DNA of 64,000 bases from an uncultured virus (IMG/VR IMGVR_UViG_3300033141_001794) (Duplodnaviria > Heunggongvirae > Uroviricota > Caudoviricetes). The position numbers and the translations under genes are program-made. Positions within the stretch are counted from its first letter, which is position 1, and each line of letters begins with the position of its first letter. The DNA lies in IMG/VR virus record IMGVR_UViG_3300033141_001794; one strand, given 5' to 3'. Of the stretch, positions 6,380 through 64,000 are shown piece by piece. Below the pieces are notes generated by a model that saw only the letters and a list, made by a program, of their open reading frames with translations, made no database searches and was not told where the DNA came from.

Positions 6380-6392
6380 GGAAAATATATTT

Positions 6393-14186: not shown

Positions 14187-14215
14187 AAAAAGCACAGAAA
14201 AAGCATAAGGAAATT

Positions 14216-50400: not shown

Positions 50401-53400
50401 AGTATAAGGGTAATGATTTTGTAACCGATGGCACTCTTTTTTATCGGGACTACTGGGGCCTTACAGAGGCGTTCAAAGAAAGCGGGGAAGGCACAGAACT
50501 AACTCCAGAGAATCTTGAAAAGGCTATTCCGGAGCCTGTTGATAGAGAAGCGAAGCCTTTAAAGGTATATGCGCTTGATAAGAAGATAGACGCAGTTTTG
50601 TTTTATGATGGTGAAGCTTACAGGTCTATCGACAAAAAACTATATAATACTATCCGTTTGCAATTCCCAGGCGCTACTTTTAAATTTGGACCAGAAGAAC
50701 GCTCTCCAATTAGCTTTTATCGCGACGATGTGTTTGAGGGCGTAGTAATGCCCATACTCCCAAACGAAAACACTCGTGCCGTTATCAAAAACCTTGAATC
50801 AGACAAAGGTACCGGAGGCAAACAGCTCTATAGCATGACCGAGAGTGAGGCCCGGGACAAGAAGCCAAAGACTCTTCCTGAAGAAACGGTCACTGATATA
50901 GTTAAATCCATGGGATCGCCAGAAGCTACCCGTAACCAGCTCTTAACCGAAGCTAACGCTAAAGAGGGGGAAAAGTTTTTAACGCGGTGGGAGCGTATCT
51001 ATCAAGGCGCAAAAGACGCTACAGTATCAATCCGGAAGGTCCAGAAGATATTTGAAAAGGAATTGGGCGTAAAGGTAACTCCCATCAATGATATTGAATA
51101 TGCCATTGATAGAGTGCGGGGATCCGGTGGAACTGCTAAACAGTTTGTTGCTGATTGGCTCTCTCCTATATTTGAAGAGATAAGGAAATCCACAAAAGAG
51201 GTAAGGCTGCACCGAAAGGCTGGGCAAATTGGAAAGATATCAAGGAACCTGGAACAATACCTGATAGCCAAGCGCCAGGTGTGGTTGTATGAGAACAAGC
51301 CGAAGTATGACGATGTTGGATATACGCAGGAATGGAGCCAGGGTGTTATCGATGATGTTGAAAGCGGAAAAACTCCGGATGCGGCATTGATACAGGCCAG
51401 TGCTAATAAGATATGGAACTATTCTGTTAAGCTGAAGGGTATTAAAAAATCATTTGGCATTATAGATGAAGAGTTTGAAAAGATGTTGAGAGAGCCTTAT
51501 TACGTTCCATTCTTCAGGGATGTTGAGAAAAAGGTTGTCCCGGGGATCCGTGGGGAGAAGTTTACTGCAATGTCGAAGGGCATTAAAAGGATTAAGGGCT
51601 CGAAATCAGGCAGGAATATCAGGAATGTCTTTGCTAATCTTATTACCATTACCAATGAAACTCTGGTAAATGCAGCACGAAACGAGGTTTTTAACGGTAT
51701 TATTAAAATGTCAGAGGAGTCTACTGAGATAGGCGAACTTATTAAAAAGCTTCCTCCGCGCTGGAAGGTAGCCGGGACCATAGAGCATAGACATGAAATC
51801 GATAAGTTTCTCTCTCCTGAATTGAGTAAGATTATTGAAGAGCTGGGCGCGAAAGAGGGCGTTAAAATAAAGATGGGGAAATATACCGGCTCTTTTAGCA
51901 GCGAGAATAAAGAAGTAATGACCATGTTCGGAGCGACTGAATCTACCAAAGCGCATGAATTAGGACATTTGATTGATCAGGATGTTATTCGTCTGCAGGA
52001 TATGGTCCGGAAATATCCCAAAGAAATGGTAGCGGTTGGATCCACCAGGTATGAAGGAGGGGAAGCAACCCAGTCTTATATAAGATATGTGCATAAGAAC
52101 GAAGAGCTTGTTGCAGAATTCGTGTCTATGTACATTACTGACCGGACCAGGCTTGCAGAACTGGCGCCAGATGCTATAAGAGACTTTGAGGGTAGGATCC
52201 AGAAGCATAAGACGCTGAAGAAATTGATAAAGCTTTACCCGAGCAGGCGCAAAGCAATTGAGAAGATTACAGAAAAGAACTGGATTCTTGATACTTCCAT
52301 ACCCAGTGACGAGGACGTTATAAGCGGTTTTGTTGGTGGAAAGATGGAGCATTACAGGGTGCCGGCTGAACTTGCAAGTGCAGTTAAGAACCTTCATCCT
52401 GAACAGATCCCCATAGCGCTGCGAGTACTGACAATCCCTACTTCTATATTAAGAAAGGGCGCGGTCCAGTTTAATGTTGACTTCTTTATTCCCAACTCCC
52501 TTAGAGATCAGATCGGTGCAACATTTACAAGAAAGTTTTATCCTGTAGTCGATTATCTCGCAGGCCTGAAGCATTACATAGCACAGGACGAGGTATACAA
52601 GCAATATCTGAGAATGGGTGGTGCAATGGATTCTCCTGAATCCGGTGTTGTACAATTACAGAGAAGCGCAAAGGAGCTGATCTACGGATCCAAGCGCGGT
52701 GAATTCTTTGACCCTCATTACTGGAAAGAAACTGGTTTAATGCGGAAAACGCTGGATATAACGAGTTATTTTGCAAAGGCACCATTCAGGGCGATTGCTA
52801 AACTTGGAGAAGCTTCAGAGCAGGCTACAAGACTCGGTGTATTTGAGAGAGGGTTGAAAAGCGGGGAAAATGTTATGGCTGCAATTCATTCGGGCAGACA
52901 GGCTTCTTTAGAGTTCCAGCGGTTTGGAACACATGGGCGCGTACCTAATCAGATAGTTCCTTTTATAAATGTTGCGCTCGAGGGAGTGGATCGGGCGATC
53001 CGTTCGGCCTATGGGAACCCGAAACGGTTTGCCATGGCAGCATTTACCTATGGTATTGCCCCGACAATTGCACTTACTATATGGAATACTACTGGTGATG
53101 ATGAAGACGAATATAAGAATGTCAGTGACAGGGACAAAGAAAATAATTACATTATAATGAGGCACGATGGTACCGGCCGTTATTGGAAAATACCGAAGTC
53201 CCATATAGTCAGAATGATAGCGAACCCTTTTCAATTAGCGTGGGAACGGTCTATAGGTACTTCAATGGGTAGCTGGCACGATCCGGCAAGTACTGTCTGG
53301 AGAGCTGCGAGCCCGATTGATGGACTGGGCGCTATTGTTCCAACAGGCTTGAAGCTGCTCATTGAACCTATTGCGAATTATGACTTCTATTGGCGACAGA

Positions 53401-53963
53401 CTATTGAATCACACAACATGAGGGCAATAGGACAACCAGGCTTAAGAGCTGAAAAAGGTACTTCTGAAACTCTGAAGAAGATCGGAAAGGCGCTGAACAT
53501 ATCTCCTATAATGATGCAGCATGAGATTAATACATTGTTTTCAGGCTTGGGAAGACACACGCTGTTTGCAGTAGACTGGGCGCTGGGAAAGACCGGGATA
53601 CAGCCAGAGACAGAAATAACAGAAAACCGAATACCGGTCCTGCGAAGATTCTTAGGGAAAGCAGAGGATTGGAAGGGTGAGGCTTCCCGGGCTGTACGTG
53701 ATATCAACAAGGCAGTATCAGCAATAGATAGAATGTCTGTTAAGGGCCTGATGAAGTACAATAAGTACAAACCGGTCGAAGCGTTAAAGGTATATAGAGA
53801 AAACAAGGCAATGAAGGTGAAGTTGCTCAGAAGAAAGATTGAACTGTTGAAAGCAACGAGAATTACCCAGGACCTCTATGATGAAATTCTGGCAGAAATA
53901 CAGAAGGCGCAGGAAAAGAGTGCGAAGGCTGAAGATGTTGTAATTAAAGCTATGGAGGAGTAA
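41418..53963 (+). CDS. Giant (~4,180 aa) DarB-like polyvalent protein: GGDEF-like, N6-adenine MTase, SNF2 helicase, clamp-like domain, HExxH, LPD38-like C-terminus
   Basis: DLDKFKLINDNKGHSYGN...SGDEG (~43340-43800); DPAFGGTG, GIELD, SNVPFG (~45770-45980); AHEVGAGKT, DEAH, TGTP, HHLDAPW.P..I.QR.GR..RQGN (~47820-49440); HELGH (~51954); ATG 41418 overlaps the upstream TGA. Confidence 0.88.
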   Translation: MPFDPLTYLEEEEVELEQPTTPEPIVIPPQTEVEPFDPLAYLEEEEVVEPVEEVAVEEAPPYEPWKEYDPITKYAPPPVDEEIAELEATMPGISTAPPVPFPEVTPSIEQPIAQPEPIASTLAVEPDYAETERLIAAGPEAGDVTTPFKALAVGTGDIAQANAYAADFLTRKRAENLKEEGFKGLKSGYKAAVRDRAGRIVEPEKKDFGGKAEIPDNRLKSIGTKLDNMISEDWKKEVHEVAGRDISMKNFEKDPLAFMNTVFTLAANTAPLIAEQAVLSKFGNIAMPGFGMVTGGAGMMAVETGNFLQQAEMMEQGLNDKQKKEWQNVVDKYAPLYGMSSGLVEYSGNAVGVLGAVKAIGKKLVAKQLLERVAGVVGEGLEELGQEALMNRFMGKAIEDMKAKDKNFAPDWKPGKLGDAFKVGLVVSLVHSGGVGLVQKIVEPKEAAPPPISLKPLPEEKKVFKDIKAQWPEMTEEEQDNALPAFTEDQKKELLDIGLSQQLDDVNAETMKDFKIQSLISGFNELTEKEQDEALEGLTEEQKAKLLDIGFDAQAEIDKRKEFDPEAYLAEEDEPEAPDLVKRAQEAITADIQEITGVDATDAVPKIERRQGPRTTLKDLESAYRKELPGFSDEQYKQMSAIHDRSDLTDVQGKASYNTGVEAIRANPREDYVLIEGSTDLDKFKLINDNKGHSYGNDYLVVAHNGLAEIADEGGIEYHHLSGDEGGMYAYVPKSEVSKVVDTVKKMRGFINNMQIKAPNNKLVKGGISIGISVEGFDKADELLGTAKTKLGRNSIYVDDIIKKDYNIDEDIGTDYSAEYEKNGFISTREKKDDTQPPDTGKTKEVEGIAPGERKTGDRTQRRTVGKVDQGKQEAKPTEVKKPAEPETKFGPAVTSALGQVATEQLDFDLDSIERRIEKGKEITREDLEGTTLYNIKNLPEFNAIVKRFEDSPAEAAAFIRKQMEPGEKEVKKKEPEKKPEGVVPQKATKEQQREVLDKAVVGTGEFNIGEVYTQEIGLEELPERPVLITKKNEDGSVEGYYVGSGSLTEIKVGIGPAALIPAKFEDPGKELNVPAYDQKTLKQYVQKVFKPEEAKAPEKKQIPVKEEKPTDEFAPAELMKERDKQATEIKEKTKAEKKKEEVKGHLKSALDKFKEINDIFGEAGALSGKEIDETTYSKIKPLLQEALNDILKAGKAAAEFVTLAIENLTPAARPYFERFVTKDMQKEVEVEPISIDDTKPLEGVQAEGVLPSPEAVRKEPEKVLRGPGEPSEGVQRGRKGPADEERPQPPTGEDDSRRDDVKRQGTDSAGEGLRGRGLAEGLVSDYQITPEDVKYYEEAGKWAKFDQNVKVINLLKRLQKEDRQATKEEQGILSKYVGWGQFPDAFNVDQWTDNKALKARRKRLQNLLTEEEYKAARGSTLNAHYTAPVIVEKMYDAIKQMGFDGGFVLDPAFGGTGMFTGVMPAQMKAKSNITGIELDPISAQIAKQLYPQSDIRQEGFEEAKLADNSYDLAISNVPFGAYSVYDKKYAKENYFIHDYFFAKSLDKVRPGGLVAFVTSAGTMNSTRSKNLREMLSKKANFLGAIRLPGDAFKRIAGTEVTTDIIFLQKLPEGGQPTHAGDWLISKDTGVNSPVSGKPLMINEYFVNNPEMMLGKVVDDKLHPGRAALKSTGDIEQGLKNAIRKLPKDVVTEAGRGVSNRVTPSETIFAPDDVKPGAFTIKDGVLYSNEDGKLVKSEKGGAAAKRIKGLIGIRDIERVLRKEELAGTDEGADKARKKLNTVYDKFVKSHGYINDRPNALAFNDDPDYNRLVALEVEYDASVRERGKLIKKASAKKADIFTQRVIPRHEEVESANSAKDALLHSLNEYGRVNINYMADIYDKTTEEVLDELQGIIYNNPDTGQWETKEDYLSGNVRQKLEQAEFAAKDNPSMYEENVRELKKIQPEDIAPTEISARMGANWIPKNYIKDFVSIITDAESQYIRVSYSDKLASWDVGMERWASTNYAKMNEVYGTQDRSALVLINDLLNFRTPTIRRKEGDASVVDKEATMAAREKQKKIKEEFGEWLWSDSERADKLVRTYNDQFNNTTFPTYDGSHLALPGIADYLEGKPFELRPHQKDAVWRIVKTGNTLLAHEVGAGKTFVMSAAVMELKRLGIAQKPLIVVPNHMMKQLPREFLSIYPNANLLVSTKTDLNKKNRNRFMSKIAMGNWDGVIVPMSSFGLLPMSKKSQADYIAREIDDLEIAIRQMKEEEGGGRDNKLIKQIEGMRKRMAEKYQALLDNPKDDTVTFEELGIDFMMVDEAHNFKNLFFATKQGRIAGVSNTASKRASDLFMKTRYLNKLRPGRNLVFSTGTPIDNTIAEMYTMQRYLQMESLEQTGLTHFDAWTSMFAEPVTGWELSPDGKRMREHTRMRSFVNLFQLNQMFREVADVKVQKDLNLKVPKQKTGGPQIVAAKASEHLKVYVDSIIARMENMPPDPREDNFLKATNDGRKAALDMRLIDPHLPDNPDSKINKAIENIFDIWKKTKADKSTQIVFCDLSTPSKERRKLKEELEERVKQAEAEGREPDVTQDEWLSLQSNFSVYDDVREKLIEMGVPEKEIAFIHDYNSDEKKASLFKKVNDGDIRVVMGSTAKMGEGTNMQERAYALHHLDAPWKPGSIKQRDGRIIRQGNTNEEVETFRYVTEQSFDAYLWQILENKALMIEQVLTDPTKQRVDDVSMVALSAAQAKAAASGNPLQMEKVKVDSDVSRLQAMKKYHDRDQFRYKREAKELPDRIAIKKKKVAGVEKDLKKRTDTLKGDKFKAIIDEIEYDKRSAADLAMEKIVKKRPGPQDALGNIGGFDFTMRFDKLDPTLFEFIVKGENDYPTGFTKTAAGGLSRMVNVVSGLEDQIKTEEKGISKLERELNTVKEQVGKPFDKEEELTKLVKRQEEVFKEIQNEGQEDTVEEILDEMGVTDVETKEPAVDDTDVGINVEDYNFDKKTYTTPQWEKKYYGKYKGNDFVTDGTLFYRDYWGLTEAFKESGEGTELTPENLEKAIPEPVDREAKPLKVYALDKKIDAVLFYDGEAYRSIDKKLYNTIRLQFPGATFKFGPEERSPISFYRDDVFEGVVMPILPNENTRAVIKNLESDKGTGGKQLYSMTESEARDKKPKTLPEETVTDIVKSMGSPEATRNQLLTEANAKEGEKFLTRWERIYQGAKDATVSIRKVQKIFEKELGVKVTPINDIEYAIDRVRGSGGTAKQFVADWLSPIFEEIRKSTKEVRLHRKAGQIGKISRNLEQYLIAKRQVWLYENKPKYDDVGYTQEWSQGVIDDVESGKTPDAALIQASANKIWNYSVKLKGIKKSFGIIDEEFEKMLREPYYVPFFRDVEKKVVPGIRGEKFTAMSKGIKRIKGSKSGRNIRNVFANLITITNETLVNAARNEVFNGIIKMSEESTEIGELIKKLPPRWKVAGTIEHRHEIDKFLSPELSKIIEELGAKEGVKIKMGKYTGSFSSENKEVMTMFGATESTKAHELGHLIDQDVIRLQDMVRKYPKEMVAVGSTRYEGGEATQSYIRYVHKNEELVAEFVSMYITDRTRLAELAPDAIRDFEGRIQKHKTLKKLIKLYPSRRKAIEKITEKNWILDTSIPSDEDVISGFVGGKMEHYRVPAELASAVKNLHPEQIPIALRVLTIPTSILRKGAVQFNVDFFIPNSLRDQIGATFTRKFYPVVDYLAGLKHYIAQDEVYKQYLRMGGAMDSPESGVVQLQRSAKELIYGSKRGEFFDPHYWKETGLMRKTLDITSYFAKAPFRAIAKLGEASEQATRLGVFERGLKSGENVMAAIHSGRQASLEFQRFGTHGRVPNQIVPFINVALEGVDRAIRSAYGNPKRFAMAAFTYGIAPTIALTIWNTTGDDEDEYKNVSDRDKENNYIIMRHDGTGRYWKIPKSHIVRMIANPFQLAWERSIGTSMGSWHDPASTVWRAASPIDGLGAIVPTGLKLLIEPIANYDFYWRQTIESHNMRAIGQPGLRAEKGTSETLKKIGKALNISPIMMQHEINTLFSGLGRHTLFAVDWALGKTGIQPETEITENRIPVLRRFLGKAEDWKGEASRAVRDINKAVSAIDRMSVKGLMKYNKYKPVEALKVYRENKAMKVKLLRRKIELLKATRITQDLYDEILAEIQKAQEKSAKAEDVVIKAMEE
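43810..43838 (+). promoter_or_regulatory. Internal sigma70-like promoter embedded in the giant gene
   Basis: TAGACG-17 nt-TATAAT in an AT-rich patch (encodes VDDIIKKDYN). Confidence 0.5.
43915..44058 (+). CDS. Candidate overprinted small basic protein (47 aa), alternative frame
   Basis: AGGGAG SD plus ATG 43915 downstream of the internal promoter; the host frame here is a disordered linker. Confidence 0.4.
   Translation: MTHSLPIRAKPRKSKELLLVNGKPVTEHKGVPLEKLTRASKKLNLQK
45109..45387 (+). CDS. Overprinted TnpV-like protein (92 aa) nested in the giant gene
   Basis: AAGGAGGT SD 5 nt before TTG; HWKEYKPKAYSQ.L..G..L..F.D.A.QA...Q.M...A.E resembles TnpV; the host frame is a low-complexity linker. 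Confidence 0.6.
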   Translation: MSQLALTIQNHWKEYKPKAYSQALKQYGKSLKKFFEDLASQARVYNVDVRDQQMKNGHNHLQAKMIADEMMLKDKVLTAPEKGFEGGDWPKD

Positions 53964-53965
53964 GC

Positions 53966-54220
53966 GTGAAGAAACCAAAGATTAACTATCAGTTTTTGAC
54001 TTTAATGTTAAGCATTGTAGGATCCCTGGTATATGGCACTATGCGTTTTGCAAAGCTGGAAGAGAGGGAGTTGCAGCACTACGAAAGCCAGTGTGAAAAG
54101 AATATAGTTTATATCGAAAGTATTCAAAACCTGACGTGTGCTGTAAAATGCCTTACTACTACTACAGACAGTCTCAGGTATGAAATTAAGTTTATCAATT
54201 TTAGGAATGGATTGGAATAA
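53966..54220 (+). CDS. Single-TM protein with coiled coil (holin-like?)
   Basis: Basic N-terminus, TM FLTLMLSIVGSLVYG; GGAGG SD. Confidence 0.45.
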   Translation: MKKPKINYQFLTLMLSIVGSLVYGTMRFAKLEERELQHYESQCEKNIVYIESIQNLTCAVKCLTTTTDSLRYEIKFINFRNGLE

Positions 54221-54462
54221 TGTCAGATGAAATACTCGATTTAAAAGACCAGACACCAGAAGCGCAGGCGATAGAGCCTTATACTACTAAATTAATGGAT
54301 TTATTAGATCAGCGAAAGGTAATGTGGGATAAGCAGCCAGATTCAGAAGAAAAGAAGAAGTGGTTAATATCCAGGCGAGATCCCATTCTCGATATTGCTG
54401 AAACTATAGGCACTTATATATATAACGAATTTCCGGAGATCATAGATGGTTTACGTAAATAA
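54220..54462 (+). CDS. Hypothetical protein
   Basis: TAATG-coupled ORF. Confidence 0.55.
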   Translation: MSDEILDLKDQTPEAQAIEPYTTKLMDLLDQRKVMWDKQPDSEEKKKWLISRRDPILDIAETIGTYIYNEFPEIIDGLRK

Positions 54463-54796
54463 AAATTTTAGCAGGGGCAAGATAAAAAAGATAACTCCGG
54501 AAAAGGGTGATCAATTTTACCGGTGTAACTTCTCCCAATTGAAAGTAACAGAGATATTTAAGGGAATTAAGAATCTTGATTTCGAGGCCTGTAATCTTAT
54601 GAATTGTATTCTTCCTGCTGGTACGAAGCCTCCAAAAGACTGTTTAATTGTTCGAAAGAGCATGTGCAGTCACATTCATCCTGATGTAAGGCCTCTCTGT
54701 CCCGTAAATTGCCAACATGTAATTGATACTTATACTATTAAAATCGACAATAAGCAGGCTAACAAATCCTATAAATATGAAGACAAGGTGATATAA
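54446..54796 (+). CDS. Cys-rich protein with short beta-solenoid-like motifs
   Basis: F.RCNFSQ, F.ACNLMNC, CSH.HP..C..NC.H. Confidence 0.55.
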   Translation: MVYVNKNFSRGKIKKITPEKGDQFYRCNFSQLKVTEIFKGIKNLDFEACNLMNCILPAGTKPPKDCLIVRKSMCSHIHPDVRPLCPVNCQHVIDTYTIKIDNKQANKSYKYEDKVI

Positions 54797-55803
54797 TGCC
54801 CGACAGATATTACAAATCAACCGGAAGTAACACGGCCCCCTATGATACGTGGGTCAAGGCTGCAACGGCTGCACAGACAATAATTGATCTTGCAGTAGCA
54901 GGTGACACAAACCATTATTCGGGTACAATTAATGCAATATTAGATGTTGATACGAACTCTGGTGCAATAGGGAGTTGGATAAAACACATAGGACATAATA
55001 ATGATGCGGCCCCTGTTTTAGATGGTACAAGAGTGTTGGTTGATGGCGCTGGTGTACGTGCTAATTGTATTGGCGCCTGTGATAAAAATTATCATTGGTG
55101 GGAAAATTTTGAGTTTACAAGGGCTACAGGTGATGGTGTTAATTTAGTTGACGCTCCAGATCCTCAAAACTGGGTATTTAAGAATTGTATTTCTCACACA
55201 AACGGTGCTGATGGTTGGGGTGGCGATGGGGGTGCGGGTACTATTTATTATATACGATGTAAAGCATATAACAACACAGCAAGAGGTTGGGACAGGGCAA
55301 CCAAAAACGCCAGAGTAATATTGTGTGCTTGTTATGGTAATGGTACGGCAGGGCTTTATGAGGGTAATGGTGGGACACTTGTGCTGAACAGTTTATTTTA
55401 CGACAACGGAGATGTTGCACAGAATTGTTATATTAATGTTAATGCTGAAGTGATAAACAATGTGTTTGATGGTACTAACCAAGCAAATTCAACGGGACTG
55501 CTAACAAAGCAGGATGGTGGGGTTGTGATGTTTAACAGGTTTACAAACTGCACCATAGGATTAGATGCTGACTTGGAATTTAAAATAGTGGGGTATAACT
55601 ATTTCCATGACAACACCGCAGATACGGCAAATGCAGTAAACTTAGAATTGTTGTTAAATGATCTTGGATTGGATACTAATGAGTATGATGTTGATGTTGA
55701 CGATGGGTATAATAATGCCGCTACAGCAGATTATAACTTAAAAGATTCACGCACTTATAATGGTAATGGTGATGATACTGTTGACCTTGGGGTTGGAGTA
55801 TAA
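54796..55803 (+). CDS. Right-handed beta-helix tailspike-like protein
   Basis: PYDTW.KAA N-terminus; repeated C..Y.N...G / N..F..N units; DYNL. Confidence 0.7.
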   Translation: MPDRYYKSTGSNTAPYDTWVKAATAAQTIIDLAVAGDTNHYSGTINAILDVDTNSGAIGSWIKHIGHNNDAAPVLDGTRVLVDGAGVRANCIGACDKNYHWWENFEFTRATGDGVNLVDAPDPQNWVFKNCISHTNGADGWGGDGGAGTIYYIRCKAYNNTARGWDRATKNARVILCACYGNGTAGLYEGNGGTLVLNSLFYDNGDVAQNCYINVNAEVINNVFDGTNQANSTGLLTKQDGGVVMFNRFTNCTIGLDADLEFKIVGYNYFHDNTADTANAVNLELLLNDLGLDTNEYDVDVDDGYNNAATADYNLKDSRTYNGNGDDTVDLGVGV

Positions 55804-56051
55804 TGGCACAGACAGGTTCAGTAAAACGAGTTATTACATCGGGAATACCTACAATACTTGAAACGGGTAGTGTAAAGTTTCAGATTTGCGCGGGTATTCC
55901 AAGTGCGTGGACAGCCGCAGGACCAGGCCCCGAGCCTCCAACTCCTCCCAGCGAAACCCTGAGAGTAGTCAAAAGCTCTATATCTACTTCCATAGGCCTC
56001 TCTCTTTCTGCTTTTATAATGATGATGATAATCTTAATGGTGATGGTGTAA
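55803..56051 (+). CDS. Small protein with tandem repeat and hydrophobic C-terminus
   Basis: TGSVK...GIP twice; Pro linker; LSAFIMMMIILMVMV. Confidence 0.45.
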   Translation: MAQTGSVKRVITSGIPTILETGSVKFQICAGIPSAWTAAGPGPEPPTPPSETLRVVKSSISTSIGLSLSAFIMMMIILMVMV

Positions 56052-56052
56052 T

Positions 56053-57684
56053 ATGGCAGCAGATTTAATATGTATTGGCGGTGACAGTATTAGGATGGGT
56101 TATGATAATAGGGTGGAGGCTTTAATGCCTGCAACTACTTTTTTTTATAACCCTGCTAATGATCAAGACATGCTGACGTTGTATGGTCATTTAGACACTT
56201 ATTTGGCTTATATGCCAACCATTTTTCATCTTAACGCTACATATCACGATGCGGTAGGAGGAACTACTGATGGGCAGTATGAAGCTCGATTGAGAGATGT
56301 CCTTGATAAGTTACTGTCTGTTTATAGGTTGACAATTGTTTGGGCGCTTGGAACACCTGTTGATAATCCGGTTGACGATGCAAGGGTTGTTGAATTAAAC
56401 ACAATAGCTACAAATGTTATAAATTCATACGGAAACGACAGGATATCTATAAACGATTTGTATCAATTTTCGGTTGATAACGGGTTGGTGCGTCATGATG
56501 GCGTCCATTTTATAGCAGCCGATTATCAGCAAATTGCTATTGAAGTTCAAGGGGTTTTGACCCCATTATTAAGGAGTGGAAGTATGCCTTTACGATATGG
56601 TAATTCAAGGTTTTATAGAACCATCCAGGTTAAACCTGCTAATGTGTATGTTAATGATACGAATGTGCCAGTGTGTCTTTCTGAAGCTGATACTGTCAAT
56701 GTGCCTGCTGGAGCATATAGAAATGATGGGGGCGATATTGTTGTAACTGATGCAAACGGTGATCTTATACCAAGAGAAATTGCAACCTTCAATCAAGGTG
56801 CTGCTACTATGCAATTATGGTATCGTGATCCTGTGCAAAACGTAGCCACAGGTGGCACAGAACTATATCTTCAGTGGGGCGGCTCTGACGTAAATGAAGC
56901 TAATAATCCAGTTACTTGGTTTAATAATTTTGGTGGTGCTGCTCATTGCCAACCGAGCATTCACTGTGAAGAAACTGCTGCAAATTTAACAGACAGTAGC
57001 GAGGTTTATACTGCTGCCGATGCTAATATGGTGTATAACCAAGCAGGGCAAATAGATGGTGCAGCAGGTTTTAACGGAACAAATTCCTTAAACTCTTGGG
57101 GAGATGTTACTGCTTTAAATGGAGTGGTACGATTTACACATCAATACTGGATAAGAATAGTCGATATAACGGCAGCGGATATTACAGCACGAAAACGGGC
57201 AAATAACACCAGAAGATACCTTGTTTATAATACAGGTGGTTCAATGCGTGTGTATGTATGTAATGGTGCCGCCTCTTATGGGCATTTTGCTTTGGCTGGA
57301 AAGATTGCTAATAATACATGGGCGCTTGTTACCATAGTATATGATGGTTCACTCGCAGGGGATGCAAACAGGTTGAAAATATATGTAGGCACTACTCAAA
57401 TGGTGCTTGCTTTTGTCAATGCCATACCCGCAACTGCCGGGAACATGGCTGCCATTGCCTTTGAAATGGGAGACAATGGAGGCATAAGCTCACTTGATGG
57501 ACGGATAGATGAGAACAGAATTATAGCCGGCGCACTATCATTAAATCAAATAAGAGGCCAATATGACAACCAGAACGAGTTCGGTGCAAACGGGACTGTT
57601 AATGTCGGTGAAATAGTGTCGTTTCAGACAAACAGAATAATCCAATCTCACATGGGACTGACTCAAAACGCAATGTCTTTGTAA
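56053..57684 (+). CDS. SGNH/GDSL esterase + DUF2341-like + LamG tail protein
   Basis: GDSI, N..HD, DGVHF; DI..TD.NG..IP.EI..F......LW...P; LamG W..VT..YDG...KIYV...G.IDE.RI. Confidence 0.8.
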   Translation: MAADLICIGGDSIRMGYDNRVEALMPATTFFYNPANDQDMLTLYGHLDTYLAYMPTIFHLNATYHDAVGGTTDGQYEARLRDVLDKLLSVYRLTIVWALGTPVDNPVDDARVVELNTIATNVINSYGNDRISINDLYQFSVDNGLVRHDGVHFIAADYQQIAIEVQGVLTPLLRSGSMPLRYGNSRFYRTIQVKPANVYVNDTNVPVCLSEADTVNVPAGAYRNDGGDIVVTDANGDLIPREIATFNQGAATMQLWYRDPVQNVATGGTELYLQWGGSDVNEANNPVTWFNNFGGAAHCQPSIHCEETAANLTDSSEVYTAADANMVYNQAGQIDGAAGFNGTNSLNSWGDVTALNGVVRFTHQYWIRIVDITAADITARKRANNTRRYLVYNTGGSMRVYVCNGAASYGHFALAGKIANNTWALVTIVYDGSLAGDANRLKIYVGTTQMVLAFVNAIPATAGNMAAIAFEMGDNGGISSLDGRIDENRIIAGALSLNQIRGQYDNQNEFGANGTVNVGEIVSFQTNRIIQSHMGLTQNAMSL

Positions 57685-57711
57685 ATATATATATTACCTC
57701 TTATATAGCTT

Positions 57712-57741
57712 AAAGCTCTTCAGAAACGGAGAGCTTTTTTA
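57712..57741 (+). terminator. Intrinsic terminator ending the late operon
   Basis: AAAGCTCTTC-loop-GGAGAGCTTT then TTTT. Confidence 0.8.
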
Positions 57742-57754
57742 TTTGAGATTTAGC

Positions 57755-57783
57755 TTGACTTTCCATTAACATTGTAGTAACTT
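57755..57783 (+). promoter_or_regulatory. Putative early promoter
   Basis: TTGACT-17 nt-TAACTT right after the terminator. Confidence 0.55.
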
Positions 57784-57827
57784 ATAAGAGAAAGGAATAA
57801 CTAAACCATTTATCAAAGGATAAACTC

Positions 57828-57995
57828 ATGTTGAAGATTCCCGAAGACCAAAAGGCAACAAAGCCAATATTGGTTACAAAGATCCAGCATAAGCAGATCT
57901 GGAAGCTCGCAAAGAAGAGAAATCAGAAGATTACAGAACTTATAGATAGCTGGCTGGGCTACGATGAATTGAAGGAAGAGCTTAATGCGTCTTAA
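57828..57995 (+). CDS. Small ribbon-helix-helix-like DNA-binding protein (55 aa; not in the ORF track)
   Basis: AAAGGA SD; KPILVTKIQHKQIWKLAKKRNQKITELIDSWL fits a beta-helix-helix RHH pattern. Confidence 0.55.
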   Translation: MLKIPEDQKATKPILVTKIQHKQIWKLAKKRNQKITELIDSWLGYDELKEELNAS

Positions 57996-58068
57996 CCCAT
58001 CAGAGAACAGAAAGCGTGTCCAGCGCTTATTGAGAGATATAAAAAAGGTTCGATCTGATGAAAAACAT

Positions 58069-58176
58069 GAGCCGGAAGGTAGCGCAGCGGAGCGCAAGGG
58101 CTTTCCCTGGTTTGGGAGTATCTTGCTCGTTCAAATCGAGGCAAGAGGGCCTGTCCGTAGCTTTCCGGCTCTTTTT
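58069..58176 (+). ncRNA. Structured RNA candidate with a tRNA-type T-loop
   Basis: 12-bp closing stem GAGCCGGAAGGT/GCTTTCCGGCTC then U5; inner TCTTGCTCG-TTCAAAT-CGAGGCAAGA hairpin; TAGCGCAGCGGAGCGC is D-arm-like. Confidence 0.5.
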
Positions 58177-58200
58177 AATTAACCCTATCAAGGAGTTGTT

Positions 58201-58389
58201 ATGGAAACAGTAAGATTAATAGTTTGTTCAAATGTTAGCGGAGAAGAAGAGACAATGACATTTACAGACGATTTTGAAGTAAGTTCTGAAGATTATTGCT
58301 CGTCCGGTCAAACAGTAGATATTGACAAAAAAATTGAAATGGATGTTCCTTCAGGCTTTCCAATGAATCATACTTTTGTAAGGAATTAA
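58201..58389 (+). CDS. Small acidic hypothetical protein
   Basis: AAGGAG SD. Confidence 0.55.
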   Translation: METVRLIVCSNVSGEEETMTFTDDFEVSSEDYCSSGQTVDIDKKIEMDVPSGFPMNHTFVRN

Positions 58390-58470
58390 TTGAAACGCAG
58401 CGCAGACCTCTTAGCAATAGCGATAGTATTGGGATTGATAGCACTTACCCTCATTATCATTTATTTATAA
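58390..58470 (+). CDS. 26-aa membrane peptide
   Basis: TTG start abutting the previous stop; LLAIAIVLGLIALTLIIIYL. Confidence 0.35.
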   Translation: MKRSADLLAIAIVLGLIALTLIIIYL

Positions 58471-58480
58471 AGGAGATCAC

Positions 58481-58711
58481 ATGGCAGACTCGTTAGGCAT
58501 TACACTCAAGAAGGAACTGTTAATCGACATGGCCAAAGCTCGCAGCGGGGAGATATTGCCCTGCACAGCTCGGAAGACTTTAGACAATTGTTTCACAACC
58601 AGTCCAGAAGGCGTTTTATTTCTTTGGTATGTTGAAGCGGAATCCAAAACCACTCGCCTTATAAGCGAGAATACTGATATTAACGAGTATTTAACAAAGG
58701 AGGCACAATGA
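58481..58711 (+). CDS. Hypothetical protein
   Basis: AAGGAG SD. Confidence 0.6.
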   Translation: MADSLGITLKKELLIDMAKARSGEILPCTARKTLDNCFTTSPEGVLFLWYVEAESKTTRLISENTDINEYLTKEAQ

Positions 58712-59451
58712 TGAAAAAAGACCTGGTTCCTCAGAACGAGCAGGCACCAGTAACCGCAGTTAATTCACCAGCTGACATAATGCAGTTAGCTATGAACAAG
58801 GACCTTGATCTGGACCGCATTGAGAAGATGCTTGAACTCCAGACCAAGTATGAAGAGCGTGAGGCAAAGAAGGCCTATACACAGGCCATGGCTAACTTTA
58901 AAGCCAATCCTCCGGAAATATCCAAGGATAAGAATGTCCAATATCAAACTTCAAAGGGACAGACAAATTATAGCCATGCTACCCTTGGGAATGTAACCCA
59001 GAAGATTAACCAAGCTCTTGCCGGTCACGATCTTTCTGCAGGGTGGAAAACAGAGCAGGATAAGGATAATATCACAATTACCTGTACAATAACTCATGCT
59101 CTTGGACATAGCGAAAGCACTTCCCTGTCGGCTGGTGCTGACACTTCTGGAGGGAAAAACAGTATCCAGGCCGTAGGGTCCACAATCACATATCTGGAAA
59201 GATATACTCTTCTTGCCCTCACCGGTCTTGCTACCCATGATCAGGACGATGATGGCCGGGGAAGTGAAGGTGAAGGCCTTGTTTATATCACAGACAATCA
59301 GAAGTCTACTATTGTGGATATGATTGCAGACACTTCGGCCAATGAAGCAAGGTTCTTAAAATATCTCGGTGCAGAATCGATTGATACTATTCCGGCCACA
59401 TTTTATAACAGGGCTATTAAGGCATTGGAAGTTAAAAAGGAGCAGGCATGA
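58708..59451 (+). CDS. erf: ERF-family single-strand annealing protein
   Basis: Y.HATL, H..GHSE, QAVGSTITYLERYTL..L.G.A..D.DDDG. Confidence 0.9.
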   Translation: MMKKDLVPQNEQAPVTAVNSPADIMQLAMNKDLDLDRIEKMLELQTKYEEREAKKAYTQAMANFKANPPEISKDKNVQYQTSKGQTNYSHATLGNVTQKINQALAGHDLSAGWKTEQDKDNITITCTITHALGHSESTSLSAGADTSGGKNSIQAVGSTITYLERYTLLALTGLATHDQDDDGRGSEGEGLVYITDNQKSTIVDMIADTSANEARFLKYLGAESIDTIPATFYNRAIKALEVKKEQA

Positions 59452-60053
59452 TAATCGTAGAAGGAATTAAGCAAAACAGTCTGGAATGGTACGCTCTTAA
59501 GCTCGGCATTCCCAGTGCTTCCAGCTTTGACAAGATAATTACAACCAAGGGAGTTGTATCAAAGACGCGAGCGAAGTATCTGTATAAACTGGCTGGCGAG
59601 GTTGTAACTGGTGAGCGTGAGGAGGGATATAACAATTCCAATATGGATCGAGGCCATGAGCGCGAAGAAGAGTCCAGAAATGCCTATGAGCTCATTAAAG
59701 ATGTTGAGGTGGAACAGGTAGGCTTTGTCTATTTTGATGAAAAGAAAGACATTGGCTGTTCTCCTGATGGCCTTGTGGGTGAAGATGGAGGATTCGAGAC
59801 AAAGGACGCTCTTCCTCATGTTCATCTTGATCGATTAGAGAATGGCTGGTCAGAGTCACAGCATTTTCAGCAGGTCCAGGGAAGTCTTTATGTTACTGGC
59901 CGGAAGTGGTGGGACCTTGTAAGTTATTCCAGAGGGTTCAAGCCTTTAATCATCAGGTTTGAACGTGACGAGGAGTTTATTAAGAAGTTAGCTGTTGAAC
60001 TCCGCTTATTCAATAACAACTTAAAAGATGTCGTTAAAAAGTATTCTGTATAG
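59448..60053 (+). CDS. YqaJ / lambda-exonuclease family nuclease
   Basis: Q.S.EW...R/K.G..SAS, M.RG.E.E, GCSPDGLV, E.K, QVQG.L.V. Confidence 0.9.
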   Translation: MIIVEGIKQNSLEWYALKLGIPSASSFDKIITTKGVVSKTRAKYLYKLAGEVVTGEREEGYNNSNMDRGHEREEESRNAYELIKDVEVEQVGFVYFDEKKDIGCSPDGLVGEDGGFETKDALPHVHLDRLENGWSESQHFQQVQGSLYVTGRKWWDLVSYSRGFKPLIIRFERDEEFIKKLAVELRLFNNNLKDVVKKYSV

Positions 60054-60061
60054 GAGATATT

Positions 60062-60892
60062 ATGGAAACCACTGAACTCATGACTATTAACCAGGAGAAC
60101 GCTCTTGAAGTATTTACCGGAGACAAGCTGCCGGAATATTTAAAAGCTATTAAGGAAGATGCTTTAAACTTTGTTGCAGATCCTGATACTGCTACTGGGA
60201 GAAAGCAGATAGCATCAAAAGCCCACTCTATTGCAAAAGAGAAGGTCCGTATAGATAATATTGGCAAGGTCCTGGTGGCTGACTGGAAAGCAAAGAGTTA
60301 TATGGTTGATGAAGCCAGGAAGAAGACCCGGGATTTTATGGACGATGTTAAAAAGGAGGTTCGCCTGCCATTGACCGAGTATGAGGATGCTAAGAAAGCG
60401 GTAGAAGAAGCAGAGCGCCAAGCTATCAAGAAGGAGATGGAATGGGAAGAGGCCCTGGTTGAAGATGATTTCTTTAACCGGAAAAAGGAGGTTGAGCGCA
60501 AAGAGGCTGAGTTGAAAGCCCAGGAAGAAGAGCGTCTTGCTAAAGAGAAGGCTCTCCAGGCAGAGATTGATCAGAAGAACCGTGAAGAGAGGATAAAACT
60601 GGAAGCCAAAGAGAAAGCGGAACGCGAAGCAGCTGATAAGATTGAGGCACTAAAGCAGGTCCAGCGTGACAAGGTAGCAAAGGAACTCGCTGAGAAAGAG
60701 CGCATTGAGGAAGAGAAGCGGGAGGCCCAGAGACTTGCTGATCGGAAAGCTGCTAACCTGAATCACCAGCGGAAGATCAACCGGGAAGCGCTCGAGGGCT
60801 TTGTTGACCATGGCCTTACAGAAGAGCTTGCTAAAAACATCATTACCCTGATAGCCAAGGGTGAAATCAAACACATTTCTATTAAGTATTAA
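60062..60892 (+). CDS. Conserved phage coiled-coil protein of recombination modules
   Basis: GRKQIAS.A..IA..K..ID..GK.LV; VR.PLTEYE; IAKG.I.H.SI.Y. Confidence 0.7.
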   Translation: METTELMTINQENALEVFTGDKLPEYLKAIKEDALNFVADPDTATGRKQIASKAHSIAKEKVRIDNIGKVLVADWKAKSYMVDEARKKTRDFMDDVKKEVRLPLTEYEDAKKAVEEAERQAIKKEMEWEEALVEDDFFNRKKEVERKEAELKAQEEERLAKEKALQAEIDQKNREERIKLEAKEKAEREAADKIEALKQVQRDKVAKELAEKERIEEEKREAQRLADRKAANLNHQRKINREALEGFVDHGLTEELAKNIITLIAKGEIKHISIKY

Positions 60893-60895
60893 AGG

Positions 60896-61120
60896 ATGGG
60901 TGATATGGGAGACATGGCAGATTTGATGTTAGATGGTACAATGTGTTCGGTATGCGGAGTGTATCTGGGTAGTGACGCTGACTACCCTCAAATGTGTGCA
61001 GATTGCGAAAAAGAAGAGAAGGAGGCTCGCGCAGAGGACCAACACGATGAAACCAGGAAGCCTGCTAACCTGACATGGAACAGAGAAACCGGAAAGTATG
61101 AGTCTGCAAATGCCAAATAG
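60896..61120 (+). CDS. Small Zn-binding protein
   Basis: MGDMAD.MLDG..C..CG.Y......P..C..C. Confidence 0.65.
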   Translation: MGDMGDMADLMLDGTMCSVCGVYLGSDADYPQMCADCEKEEKEARAEDQHDETRKPANLTWNRETGKYESANAK

Positions 61121-61364
61121 AACCCTGTATCCCTGCACCTGTAACGGCTTTGAGAATAATCCTTATTGCGTCTTCCATTATTCAAAGGAAACCAGAATAA
61201 GAATATCACCAGTGATTCAGGGATTAAAAGATCAATATCAATTTAATCACCAGGAAGCTTATGAGAGAGGTGTTGAATTAATTTGTAACGAATTGAAACA
61301 GGAAGAAAAAGAACGTAAGCTATTGATAGAAAGAAAGTACTATAATTCACTTAAAGTTGCTTAA
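61098..61364 (+). CDS. Hypothetical protein
   Basis: CTC...PYC..H; overlaps the upstream gene. Confidence 0.5.
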   Translation: MSLQMPNRTLYPCTCNGFENNPYCVFHYSKETRIRISPVIQGLKDQYQFNHQEAYERGVELICNELKQEEKERKLLIERKYYNSLKVA

Positions 61365-61442
61365 AAAGAATGTGAGTGCGTATAGCGACTTGTTGTATGA
61401 CATTATGAGAATCTTTAAATTGTAAAAAGGAGGTTTTGCTAT

Positions 61443-61751
61443 ATGGAATACCAAATAGTAGTTGAAAGTGACCCGTTTAGAATGGCAGAGTGCGTAAATG
61501 ATATGTGTAAAGATGGGTGGATGCCGGTAGGTTCGCACCACGTTGCTTTTGAGCCTGGTCAAATATGGTATTACTCACAAGCGGTAGTCCGCAAAACTCC
61601 TAACACTAAGGAAGCTTTACAAAACGACACACAACAACTACAGGCTAAAATTGCCGATTGTGCATTGGTGATTGAAAATAGTGAAAAGGGGCTTGGAAGT
61701 ATCACGAAAGGTGCAATTGCACACAGGCTTCGGCAACTATCAGCCGTGTAG
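61443..61751 (+). CDS. Cassette 1 ORF, DUF1737-like N-terminus
   Basis: YQIV......L..VN.....GW.P.G......YSQAVVR; AAGGAGG SD. Confidence 0.7.
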   Translation: MEYQIVVESDPFRMAECVNDMCKDGWMPVGSHHVAFEPGQIWYYSQAVVRKTPNTKEALQNDTQQLQAKIADCALVIENSEKGLGSITKGAIAHRLRQLSAV

Positions 61752-61762
61752 GAACGTTGTCG
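61629..61762 (+). repeat. attC-like site A
   Basis: CAAC-aa-CTACA-GGCT-aaaa-TTGCCGA...TCGGCAA-ctatc-AGCC-g-TGTAG-gaac-GTTG. Confidence 0.75.
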
Positions 61763-61826
61763 ATCAATCCCGCTGGGGTTGGGCAGCACGATTTTAATTG
61801 TAGTTTAACGAATTGGAGGCTAAATT

Positions 61827-62123
61827 ATGGGAGTATCGGGTAAAAGTGTAAAGAAGTTTTCAGAAGGAAATTTAGCTATTACAAATGGCGTTCATTTAGA
61901 CAGCGACTATAAACATGTTTTTTTTGACATAACTGAATGTGATGATAAGAAGGTTAAGCTAAAAAGTCACTGGAATAGTACTGAGTTTAATTGTGTAATA
62001 GAAACTGATACTTTTGGCGAACATACAACAATTAAACAGACTTCTGAGGTAGAAAAATTTCTTTTTCATATAAAGTCAAAAAAATTTAAGGTAAGACCGA
62101 TGAAAGGTGACAGGATTGGATAA
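61827..62123 (+). CDS. Cassette 2 ORF, hypothetical
   Basis: GGAGG SD, 98 aa. Confidence 0.65.
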   Translation: MGVSGKSVKKFSEGNLAITNGVHLDSDYKHVFFDITECDDKKVKLKSHWNSTEFNCVIETDTFGEHTTIKQTSEVEKFLFHIKSKKFKVRPMKGDRIG

Positions 62124-62268
62124 CAATTCGTTAAAGGAAAAAGCAAATTGAACGTCACAATGGAAAAAATAACCAGCGGGCACGCGGATGTTAAACACCG
62201 CTTTAATCGACAACGCCCTCTTACAAACCGATTGAGAGCTTGTCTAATGTCCACTCCAGCCGGACAGC

Positions 62269-62343
62269 CGACAACAATCTTAGGGGAAAATATCAGGACG
62301 AAAAGAAGCCCTGACACGTTCCCCCGTAAGAGGGCGTTGCAGG
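62269..62343 (+). repeat. attC-like site B
   Basis: CAAC-aa-TCTTA-GGGGAA-aata-TCAGG...CCTGA-cacg-TTCCCC-g-TAAGA-gggc-GTTG. Confidence 0.78.
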
Positions 62344-62403
62344 AAATTAAACCGCTAAGAGCATAATTGTAGTTTGGCTCATTAGCAGAAAAGGATTGTA
62401 AAA

Positions 62404-62712
62404 ATGGAAATTGATTACGGAAATGGAAAAACTAAATATGGGCCTGGTGTGCAAATAGAATTAAGCGGCGGCGAGGTGGCAATTGCAATAGACACATATT
62501 TAACAGCACACAATGTATATATATCCGGCCCCAGAACTATTACAGTAAACAATGAGCTGTGTAAAATTGGGAGTGTCTATGTTGATCCATCTGGGTTTGC
62601 AATTGCTAATGGTATAAAATATAGTGGTAGAGGTTCAAGCCTTCGCCAAAAGAGAATTAAGGAAAACGCGGTTGAACATCCTGCAACACCGAAAGGCCAA
62701 AATGACAAGTAA
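62404..62712 (+). CDS. Cassette 3 ORF, hypothetical
   Basis: AAAGGA SD; YG.G.T.YGPGV.I.L.G.EVA.AI..YL.AH. Confidence 0.7.
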   Translation: MEIDYGNGKTKYGPGVQIELSGGEVAIAIDTYLTAHNVYISGPRTITVNNELCKIGSVYVDPSGFAIANGIKYSGRGSSLRQKRIKENAVEHPATPKGQNDK

Positions 62713-62739
62713 CTTCGGCCATTCCGGGAACGTTGTCGG
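62681..62739 (+). repeat. attC-like site C (short, more degenerate)
   Basis: CAAC-ac-CGAAAGGCC-aaaa...GGCCATTCCG-ggaac-GTTG. Confidence 0.6.
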
Positions 62740-62783
62740 AAATACCGAATCGATTGTAAATTGGGTGATAAACGGAGGTTAAA

Positions 62784-63059
62784 ATGCAATTTTTAGACAA
62801 GTTGGGGTGGCCTGTTGAAAGAGTAAAGGGCAGGCCGGTGTTAAATTTTTTGCGGTTGTTAATTCACACCCGTAAAATTAAGCGGGGCAAGTTTGTTTAC
62901 AAGCAGGAACCATCACCCAATGTAACTTGTGGAAATTCGGAACATACCGACAACAAGACACAGCCTAAAACTTCGGCTTTTGGTGATGCGGTTCGTAAAC
63001 ATGCCGAAAAAGAAGGAATTGATTTGGATGTTAAGCCTAAACAAATTTACGGTGGGTAG
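62784..63059 (+). CDS. Cassette 4 ORF, hypothetical
   Basis: GGAGG SD, 91 aa. Confidence 0.6.
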   Translation: MQFLDKLGWPVERVKGRPVLNFLRLLIHTRKIKRGKFVYKQEPSPNVTCGNSEHTDNKTQPKTSAFGDAVRKHAEKEGIDLDVKPKQIYGG

Positions 63060-63091
63060 CCTTCGCATCAGGCGTGTGCAAGACGTTGGAG
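62948..63091 (+). repeat. attC-like site D
   Basis: CAAC-aaga-CACA-GCCT-aaaa...c-AGGC-g-TGTG-caagac-GTTG. Confidence 0.65.
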
Positions 63092-63121
63092 TAAATTTTT
63101 TCTTTTGAGATTGGAGTTTTT

Positions 63122-63358
63122 ATGCGTGATAATGATATTGAAAGGTTAGACTATCACCTTAGTCGTAAAGAGTTTAAATCGCTCCGTTTTGTGTGGGATC
63201 GCATAAAAAAGGCTTTAAGCGGAAGCGAAAAAACTCCCACCAACAACGACAGCCCAAAATTGCATTGTCCTAAGTGTGGCGCAACCGACAATATAGCACA
63301 ATCGACAGAGGGGCATAAGTATCATTGTTTTAGGTGTGATAATTACTGGAAAAAATAA
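63122..63358 (+). CDS. Cassette 5 ORF with C-terminal Zn ribbon
   Basis: CPKCG...CFRC; GGAG SD. Confidence 0.65.
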   Translation: MRDNDIERLDYHLSRKEFKSLRFVWDRIKKALSGSEKTPTNNDSPKLHCPKCGATDNIAQSTEGHKYHCFRCDNYWKK

Positions 63359-63389
63359 TGCAACTGTCGGGCGTGTCTTGACGTTGTGA
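63238..63389 (+). repeat. attC-like site E
   Basis: CAAC-aac-GACA-GCCC-aaaa-TTGCATT...AATGCAA-ctgtc-GGGC-g-TGTC-ttgac-GTTG. Confidence 0.78.
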
Positions 63390-63422
63390 CGAAATTAATC
63401 CTTTAGAATATTGGAGTTGCGA

Positions 63423-63674
63423 ATGAAATTAAAAGAAGCTATGAAAACAATCGGGAGTTTGGTATCTGGTTGCGGTTATTCAAAGGATGTTGATGCGTAT
63501 AATGTCATTCGCAAAGCATTAGAGGAAGCGGATGAACTGTCGCACAACACCGCCAGGGATGCCATCGCTTTCGTTGAACAGGTAAAAGGGTGTAGTAAGC
63601 GGGTGGCCGGTTCGAACAAAGTATTAGTTGCATTAATCAATCAGGCTGCGGTCATAGCGCAACGGCACCCATAG
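63423..63674 (+). CDS. Cassette 6 ORF, hypothetical
   Basis: GGAG SD before ATG 63423. Confidence 0.6.
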   Translation: MKLKEAMKTIGSLVSGCGYSKDVDAYNVIRKALEEADELSHNTARDAIAFVEQVKGCSKRVAGSNKVLVALINQAAVIAQRHP

Positions 63675-63689
63675 CGTAATCCGTTGTTT
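63542..63689 (+). repeat. attC-like site F
   Basis: CAAC-ac-CGC-ca-GGG-a-TGCC...GGCA-CCC-ata-GCG-taatcc-GTTG. Confidence 0.6.
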
Positions 63690-63733
63690 TCAATTAACCG
63701 CCGATTATAGGTCGGCAGAAAGAAAGGTAACAG

Positions 63734-64000
63734 ATGGATGATAAACAAACGTTAGTGGAGTCCGGCAAGCAGTTGACGGCAACTTTGCCAAATGATACGA
63801 TGCGTATTATGAGCATTGCTATTGAAACCTTAGCCGTGGCAAGGGATAATTTAAAGAAACGTCTTGGCAACTGTAATGTTTCACAAATGGTTGCAGAAAG
63901 TGACGATAGATATTCTGCGATATTAACAGAACCTAATGGTAAAAAACATTTCTGGAAAAAGGACGGTTCTTATGATGGTAACGATAAGGAGTGCTCTGAC
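63734..64000 (+). CDS. Cassette 7 ORF (partial, runs off the window)
   Basis: GAAAGG SD, ATG 63734, open to the end (MDDKQTLVESGK...). Confidence 0.55.
   Translation, partial: MDDKQTLVESGKQLTATLPNDTMRIMSIAIETLAVARDNLKKRLGNCNVSQMVAESDDRYSAILTEPNGKKHFWKKDGSYDGNDKECSD

Follow-up and report, generated by a model that had tools for sequence, protein, structure and literature searches.

An integron-like array of single-gene cassettes probably lies in the early region of an uncultured tailed phage

Introduction

Integrons are seen as bacterial systems operated by the integrase IntI, and the published consensus for the boxes of their attC sites is RYYYAAC/GTTRRRY. In phages of the CTX type, the host Xer tyrosine recombinase acts in trans on a DNA hairpin formed by one strand, and the single strand exchange is resolved by replication. 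This report concerns the final 2.6 kb of a 64,000-nucleotide stretch of DNA (the window) from an uncultured tailed virus, IMG/VR record IMGVR_UViG_3300033141_001794, which consists of a row of small genes with a hairpin at the end of each. The region probably forms an integron-like array in which at least six single-gene cassettes are complete and exchange takes place at the G|TT of their hairpin sites. Published phage cases consist of a few small attC clusters found by models trained on bacterial sites: passages of Qi et al. 2023 (PMC9892861) describe 17 integrase-less attC clusters in 10,705 cultured phage genomes, detected with IntegronFinder and HattCI, and report that IntI1 recombined five of six tested phage sites.

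Results

The initial annotation, made from the sequence alone, had placed six hairpins in this region, one after each small gene, and all six were found at the claimed positions, each folding with CAAC paired to GTTG. The layout of the array is as follows.

61392-61397, strand not assigned: site 0, a lone GTTG(TA) junction box without a hairpin at the head of the array, in an attI-like position
61393-61756, + strand: cassette 1, gene 61443-61751 (102 aa), site A 61632-61759
61757-62336, + strand: cassette 2, gene 61827-62123 (98 aa), site B 62211-62339
62337-62732, + strand: cassette 3, gene 62404-62712 (102 aa), site C 62684-62735
62733-63085, + strand: cassette 4, gene 62784-63059 (91 aa), site D 62951-63088
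63086-63383, + strand: cassette 5, gene 63122-63358 (78 aa), site E 63241-63386
63384-63683, + strand: cassette 6, gene 63411-63674 (87 aa, or with its ATG at 63423), site F 63545-63686
63684-64000, + strand: start of cassette 7, a leader with a small stem-loop and a gene from 63734 that is truncated by the window end

A custom scan for hairpins (CAAC ... CGTTG spaced 45-175 nt, with an arm duplex of -8 kcal/mol or lower) returned, on the + strand of the 64-kb window, exactly the six array sites within 2.1 kb and no site in the remaining 61 kb, against a mean of 2.0 scattered sites, both strands summed, in ten block-shuffled windows. Likewise, CGTTG-N5-AAT occurs six times in the window, four of them inside the array, against 1.74 expected. 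All site scans rely on folding energy and motifs, with no E-values attached. Site 0, whose GTTG at 61392-61395 counts as a seventh junction box, has no hairpin site terminating at it in a loose scan, and a generalised NAAC/GTTN scan was set aside as largely noise within coding DNA. The cassette leaders carry strong Shine-Dalgarno motifs and the cassette genes are co-oriented with the phage genes, the + strand carrying all long reading frames of the window.

The bases to the right of each GTTG had been described as complementary to those to the left of the next CAAC, and this pairing between neighbours stands: past the 4-nt boxes it extends over 1, 5, 5, 4, 1 and 2 nt, compared with a mean of 0.58 nt over 36 non-neighbour pairs and 0-1 nt between the two boxes of one and the same site, and the observed sum was reached by 2 of 720 site orderings. 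The flank tcgat of site B is complementary to the flank after the GTTG of site A, and the matches GTTGcagga / tcctgCAAC and GTTGtcgg / ccgaCAAC are found at the flanks of sites C and D, respectively. In the arrangement proposed here, each cassette would span the TTG of one junction box to the G of the next, and its two ends (YAAC and GTTR with about 5 variable bases) would pair together once the cassette is excised.

The initial annotation had also expected gene content to change at the GTTG cores, and two public contigs of the same phage, L001 and L002, change exactly there. L001 is 99.3% identical to window 53987-61442 (BLAST), is identical by eye through cgacttGTTGTA (61397) and thereafter carries three different small genes; it shares just GTTGTA with the window at the breakpoint and no common leader. 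L002 is 99.98% identical to window 53439-63695 and diverges at 63688, the next base after the GTTGT of site F. The new genes of L001 end in sites of the same kind, with GTTGtaaga / tcttaCAAC pairing over nine of nine bases. As a separate observation, the last cassette of L001 has no recognisable hairpin site, and a homing-endonuclease gene with NUMOD4, HNH and AP2 domains (L001 8326-8871) follows directly after it.

A more distant comparison was obtained with the gene downstream of the L001 array as anchor, which retrieved 74 phage loci. One of these, L024, lies in G005, a contig of 74,434 bp that CheckV rates as 100% complete and whose terminal repeat spans at least 50 bp. Its genes are syntenic with those of the window at protein identities of 21-36%, and eight cassettes of the same design are found immediately upstream of the anchor gene. 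In L024 a site ending in GTTAggtg precedes a cassette that ends in caccTAAC; TAAC/GTTA is thus used beside CAAC/GTTG, and the base that follows GTT goes with the downstream cassette, as a G|TT crossover predicts. Taken together, the site-order permutations, the L001 and L002 breakpoints and the GTTA/TAAC pair of L024 indicate by comparison that the boxes are split by exchange at what would be G|TT on the sense strand, equivalent to CAA|C when read on the strand that folds, a position shared with integrons. At the end of the L024 array, the final site (9654-9810) has a decayed 3' box and ends GGGACGTAG rather than ...ACGTTG.

The question of which molecule folds was approached with 28 sites, hand-picked from the scan output across arrays. 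Own arms pair better than swapped arms in these sites (mean -10.6 against -6.0 kcal/mol), with the own-arm total reached by 0 of 10000 permutations, and the covariation of the stems on which the initial annotation depended is thereby borne out. G·T pairs are confined to the antisense strand, which has 57 of them against 0 for the sense strand and forms the more stable fold in 24 of the 28 sites (Wilcoxon p = 5e-5); at site C, for example, the - strand folds at -8.8 and the + strand at -5.5 kcal/mol. By this comparison, selection on pairing appears to have made the antisense strand the one that folds, and hence the folded substrate, as in integrons. It could be argued that the hairpins act instead at the RNA level in the early transcript, as RNase III sites, terminators or stabilisers like those of T7 early mRNA, given that a hairpin follows every small gene in an early region and that the sites overlap the 3' ends of frames. 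However, the pairs that would be G·U in RNA are exactly those absent from the sense strand, the + strand has no terminator-like site in 60800-64000 and no T-run terminator, Rfam returned no match near the cut-off of any family (one chance-level match scored 11.6 bits against a cut-off of 40), and the swapping of genes at the boxes is unexplained by RNA structure. Given the antisense-only G·T pairs and stability bias, together with the missing + strand terminator and Rfam match, the hairpins are best read as bottom-strand DNA sites and not as mRNA structure, and an RNA-level function as the whole explanation is extremely improbable.

All six window sites and all 28 curated sites read YAAC ... 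GTTR. The CAAC/GTTG core had been put forward as a departure from the usual one, a claim that has to be withdrawn because it fits the YAAC/GTTR of the published consensus and because the related L024 array mixes in TAAC/GTTA; the fit to that consensus is limited to the Y and R beside the triplet, and the outer positions vary. On the folding strand, the consensus runs from the 5' flank through CAA|C, GTTn, a helix of 5-7 bp, a bulge of 1-2 nt, a second helix, a loop of a few to about 110 nt and the return arm, with about one unpaired base, to GTTG and its flank. The central spacer is lopsided, with side means of 4.1 and 1.4 nt and, in 26 of 28 sites, the greater length on the sense-strand 3' side. 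Reading of the folds places the bulge on the sense-strand 3' arm in 19 of 28 sites; counting unpaired bases gives a 14 / 5 / 9 split. An unpaired G on the + strand 3' arm, proposed as a feature of every site, holds for A, E and the inner fold of B, is ambiguous in D and fails in C, where an A is unpaired, and in F, where both arms have unpaired bases; across the phage sites the bulged base is not a conserved G. The arms concerned are CTACAGGCT / AGCCgTGTAG in site A (-8.9 kcal/mol), CACAGCCT / AGGCgTGTG in site D and GACAGCCC / GGGCgTGTC in site E, whose 5' box can be read at 63241 or 63244.

Site B required a correction. The hairpin is present, but the 5' arm first placed at 62272 yields to a better one at 62211, CAACGCCCTCTTAC / GTAAGAGGGCGTTG, which forms 14 bp free of mismatches at -18.6 kcal/mol, extends the site to 129 nt and lengthens the flank match between A and B from 3 to 5 nt, leaving the arm at 62272 as a nested alternative. 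A basic frame of 72 aa (62148-62366) spans all of site B including its GTTG box and is doubtful as a gene and probably not one, so that the site of cassette 2 may be long and non-coding, with a choice of two 5' arms.

The attC site of aadA1 from plasmid R100, read with the same script as a control, carries its two extra bases on the arm that is 5' on the sense strand and distal to the crossover, and its spacers measure about 5 and 6 nt; passages of Bouvier et al. 2009 (PMC2727003) agree on the arm that carries the extra bases. A further contrast with attC concerns coding: the reading frame enters the 5' arm in 24 of the 28 phage sites and stops inside the site in 22 of these 24; in 16 of the 24 the AAC serves as a codon, a count inflated by the relatedness of sites and by the stop codons that one frame of the arm contains. 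The real departures from attC are thus the bulge on the crossover arm, the lopsided spacer and the frames that enter the hairpin, and given these differences the recombinase is expected to recognise the sites in a mode other than that of IntI1 or VchIntIA.

Arrays of this site family occur in five further phage contigs, four of them unrelated. An arm-pattern search added L103, L106, L116 and L118, whose proteomes have almost nothing in common with the window or L024. When 1.9 Mb of loci were scanned for linked site pairs, CAAC/GTTG pairs were limited to five contigs (L002, which represents the window lineage, L024, L103, L106 and L118), and linked pairs with TAAC/GTTA cores were found in the IMG/VR contigs L044, L064 and L068. 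The boxes of L068, GCCTAAC / GTTAGGC, are textbook attC boxes. One linked site pair lies on the minus strand in the methyltransferase region of Polaribacter phage P12002L (L160, 31120-32281), a phage that reportedly has a published attC cluster encoding two methyltransferases. Three sets of candidates were rejected: L003, L004 and L007, with high-GC relatives (26% identical) of the neighbour gene, showed no convincing array; a metagenome scan with the 276-aa neighbour gene gave 4 loci, none informative; and the 5' arm pattern of sites D and E matched 11 stretches in IMG/VR, ten of them in other contigs without a partner arm and judged to be chance.

With six sites in 2.1 kb and no integrase found, the layout is that of a cluster of attC sites lacking an integrase (CALIN), and it is conceivable that the phage passively acquired a CALIN fragment from a host chromosome and that it has no role in phage evolution; the published phage CALINs, in the portions of the account that treat them (PMC9892861), include pieces of host chromosomal integrons. 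This scenario is very unlikely for several reasons. First, the site family is found in the early region of two distant syntenic phages and in four unrelated phage contigs. Second, a 22-nt 3' arm pattern had 0 matches in one genome per species from 185,579 species, and no linked site pair was found in 22 bacterial loci, which carry a DUF1376-like neighbour gene in genomes of both Bacteroidota and Firmicutes. Third, the cassette genes share the orientation of the phage genes, have phage-like leaders and include one Lar-type phage gene. Finally, the site design is unlike that of bacterial attC.

The cassettes are mosaic. In L024, cassettes 2 and 8, and likewise cassettes 4 and 6, have a common leader after GTTG and a common 30-70 nt before the 5' box and are unlike in gene body and hairpin interior. 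Between phages, the 37 nt before the box of cassette 3 (62654-62689) recur at 89% identity in L118 1856-1889 with another gene, and the leader after site F (63681-63717) recurs at 94.6% after a GTTG box in L116 2089-2125, again with another gene. A similar C-terminal zinc ribbon (CPxCG ... CxxC) is encoded by the long loops of four sites, each in a different phage, and is joined to unrelated N-terminal parts.

Window 63241-63386: zinc-ribbon loop of site E
L103 6780-6918: zinc-ribbon loop
L118 8000-8134: zinc-ribbon loop
L024 9654-9810: zinc-ribbon loop

The loop of site E codes for CPKC...CFRC, a weak Pfam zinc-ribbon match, and its peptide is 36.8% identical to the counterpart in the L103 array. 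Such a pattern is compatible with additional exchange at the 5' box, with homologous exchange by way of the short modules, or with the two combined. It might be supposed that both boxes of each hairpin are exchange points for a non-IntI recombinase acting in trans, so that the leader with the N-terminal part and the hairpin interior are swapped independently, mostly in frame, which would amount to site-specific domain shuffling of accessory proteins; this possibility is considered rather unlikely. The other route would be regulatory cassettes shuffled by homologous recombination, resembling the promoter early stem-loop (PeSL) cassettes of T4-type phages, with the modules as homology arms for Erf and YqaJ and the hairpins as by-products or regulators. 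An Erf protein (58708-59451) and a YqaJ exonuclease (59448-60053) are encoded just upstream of the array, and leader and pre-box modules of about 37-45 nt occur across cassettes with different genes, both within L024 and between phages. Nevertheless, the breakpoint between L001 and the window shares GTTGTA alone and no leader, homologous exchange predicts neither the pairing of a flank with the next flank nor G·T pairs confined to the antisense strand, and the junctions do not each carry a promoter and a terminator-like stem-loop: there is no consistent hexamer pair at the sites, promoter-like matches in 60800-64000 lying away from the junctions, and the + strand lacks a terminator-like site. 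Homologous shuffling of this kind, taken as the explanation of the array, is improbable.

Most cassette genes match no family. The gene of cassette 1 has a DUF1737-like N-terminal half (Pfam DUF1737, E = 8.5e-5, under the curated cut-off), a cassette of L001 encodes a Lar restriction-alleviation domain above the cut-off, a cassette gene of L024 has a prepilin-type N-terminus, and one of L118 has a weak radical SAM-like match below the cut-off. The likely benefit of such payloads is a fast turnover of host-takeover or anti-defence genes.

The search for a recombinase covered the contigs of the array phages with a PF00589 profile that recovered the family in 14 of 14 control genomes. No match at E <= 0.1 was found in the contigs of L001, L002 and L021, and none in G010-G012, the contigs of the TAAC/GTTA-site loci L044, L064 and L068. 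A tyrosine recombinase in the contig of L004 was rejected as a candidate, lying about 14 kb from the match and linked to no site. Early-region nucleases comprise HNH, GIY-YIG, DUF1064, VRR-NUC and ParB-like proteins, none common to all array phages, and the proteomes of the window, G005, G006 and G007 share TerL and one small array-ORF (open reading frame) family, the latter in G006-G008, and nothing else.

The array sits among the early (accessory) genes of a tailed phage whose genome measures about 66-69 kb. This size follows from L001 and L002, which at 9.9 and 10.4 kb are rated 15% complete, so that nearly all of the genome lies inside the window. The genes that orient the genome, assigned with PHROGs and Pfam, are the following.

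1523-4226, + strand: small and large terminase
22574-24646, + strand: portal
58708-59451, + strand: Erf annealing protein, just upstream of the array
59448-60053, + strand: YqaJ exonuclease, just upstream of the array

No cultured relative was identified: window 58000-64000 had no DNA match among 50,697 phage records and the portal protein none among cultured phages. Given that the matches to TerL and Erf are all below 60% identity and spread over many host groups, the phage is not assigned to a host. A ParB-like gene used as anchor gained merely 390 nt upstream of the window. Two further regions of the window were recorded. About 15 kb from terminase to portal (6318-21805) encode sugar- or glycan-modifying enzymes, among them several glycosyltransferases and methyltransferases, a radical SAM protein, a nitroreductase-like protein, a formyltransferase, a DegT-type aminotransferase and an oxidoreductase, and a comparable block is present in G005. 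Downstream of the tail genes, 41373-53963 is one open frame of 4196 aa, with 24% identity across 347 aa to G005 56906-63889.

Discussion

The core of the initial annotation, a cassette array with crossover at G|TT served by a recombinase of the host or from outside the window, is upheld by the gene-content changes at the boxes and the covariation of the stems. Excision and insertion would then proceed by single-strand site-specific recombination of the folded bottom strand. Since no recombinase was found encoded in the window or in the complete relatives, it is suggested that the enzyme acts in trans; the likeliest candidate would be a tyrosine recombinase encoded by the host or by a co-infecting element. 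This is the weakest step of the account.

Several observations weigh against an integron-like array. Only the left breakpoints of L001 and L002 are visible, and whole-cassette excision is inferred rather than seen since the sequences do not rejoin before the end of the contigs or of the window. The 28 curated sites are non-independent and some share ancestry. The phage sites do not have the extrahelical bases on the L'' arm or the even spacers of attC. No integron integrase gene was found beside the array: PF00589 had no match among 61 window ORFs scanned with Pfam, the 4196-aa ORF lying outside that scan, PHROGs gave no integrase among 67 window ORFs, and the final 2-5 kb of the phage genome fall beyond the window. 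The same profile at E <= 0.1 found nothing in the site-family contigs G005, G006, G007, G008 and G009, of which G005 and G006 are 100% complete by CheckV, G007 has terminal repeats and is rated 60%, and G008 and G009 are fragments. Lastly, different genes have box-adjacent modules of 37-45 nt in common, cassette homology ends at the 5' box as well, and the shared modules fit homologous exchange by Erf and the exonuclease, acting as well or instead.

If an integron-like array is nevertheless the correct reading, lytic-type phages would carry their accessory and anti-defence genes on a platform that resembles an integron and relies on an enzyme provided in trans, and the mirrored design of the sites would offer a concrete handle for finding that recombinase. 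The same design hints that such arrays may escape attC models whose training sites were bacterial. A full-text literature search returned no paper with this site design, nor any with such phage arrays beyond Qi et al. 2023.

One of the closest systems on record is the class 1 integron represented by aadA1 of R100. As far as the text of PMC2727003 describes it, it is alike in having co-oriented single-gene cassettes closed by imperfect hairpins with AAC/GTT ends; further likenesses are the G|TT crossover that splits the R box, the pairing of ends to 9-10 nt, the bottom-strand fold and a head site free of a hairpin. The phage array differs in that no IntI gene was found and in that the bulge lies on the crossover-proximal arm, whereas in attC_aadA1 it lies on the distal L'' arm. 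The spacers of the integron site measure 5-6 nt on each side and those of the phage sites about 4 and about 1 nt. Unlike the integron, the phage sites also admit frames into the hairpin in 24 of 28 cases, have long loops that are coding and do not conserve the bulged G.

The CALINs of virulent phages, to judge from the text and figured examples of Qi et al. 2023, are alike as phage-borne, integrase-less clusters of sites among accessory genes; the figured clusters have 2-3 sites, whereas the present array has at least six complete cassettes, recent exchange as indicated by comparison and a departing site design. The PeSL cassettes of T4-type phages, in the portions of PMC2839356 and PMC4122927 that describe them, are alike in their small accessory genes, short repeated motifs and modular gain, loss and replacement. 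They are promoter-terminator motifs that move by homologous recombination, whereas the phage array has no promoter or terminator consensus, its arms covary and its signals are those of folded DNA. The Xer system of CTX phages, finally, would be alike in the trans-acting host recombinase working on a folded strand that is proposed here, and differs in that the whole phage genome is integrated at dif and no cassette array is involved.

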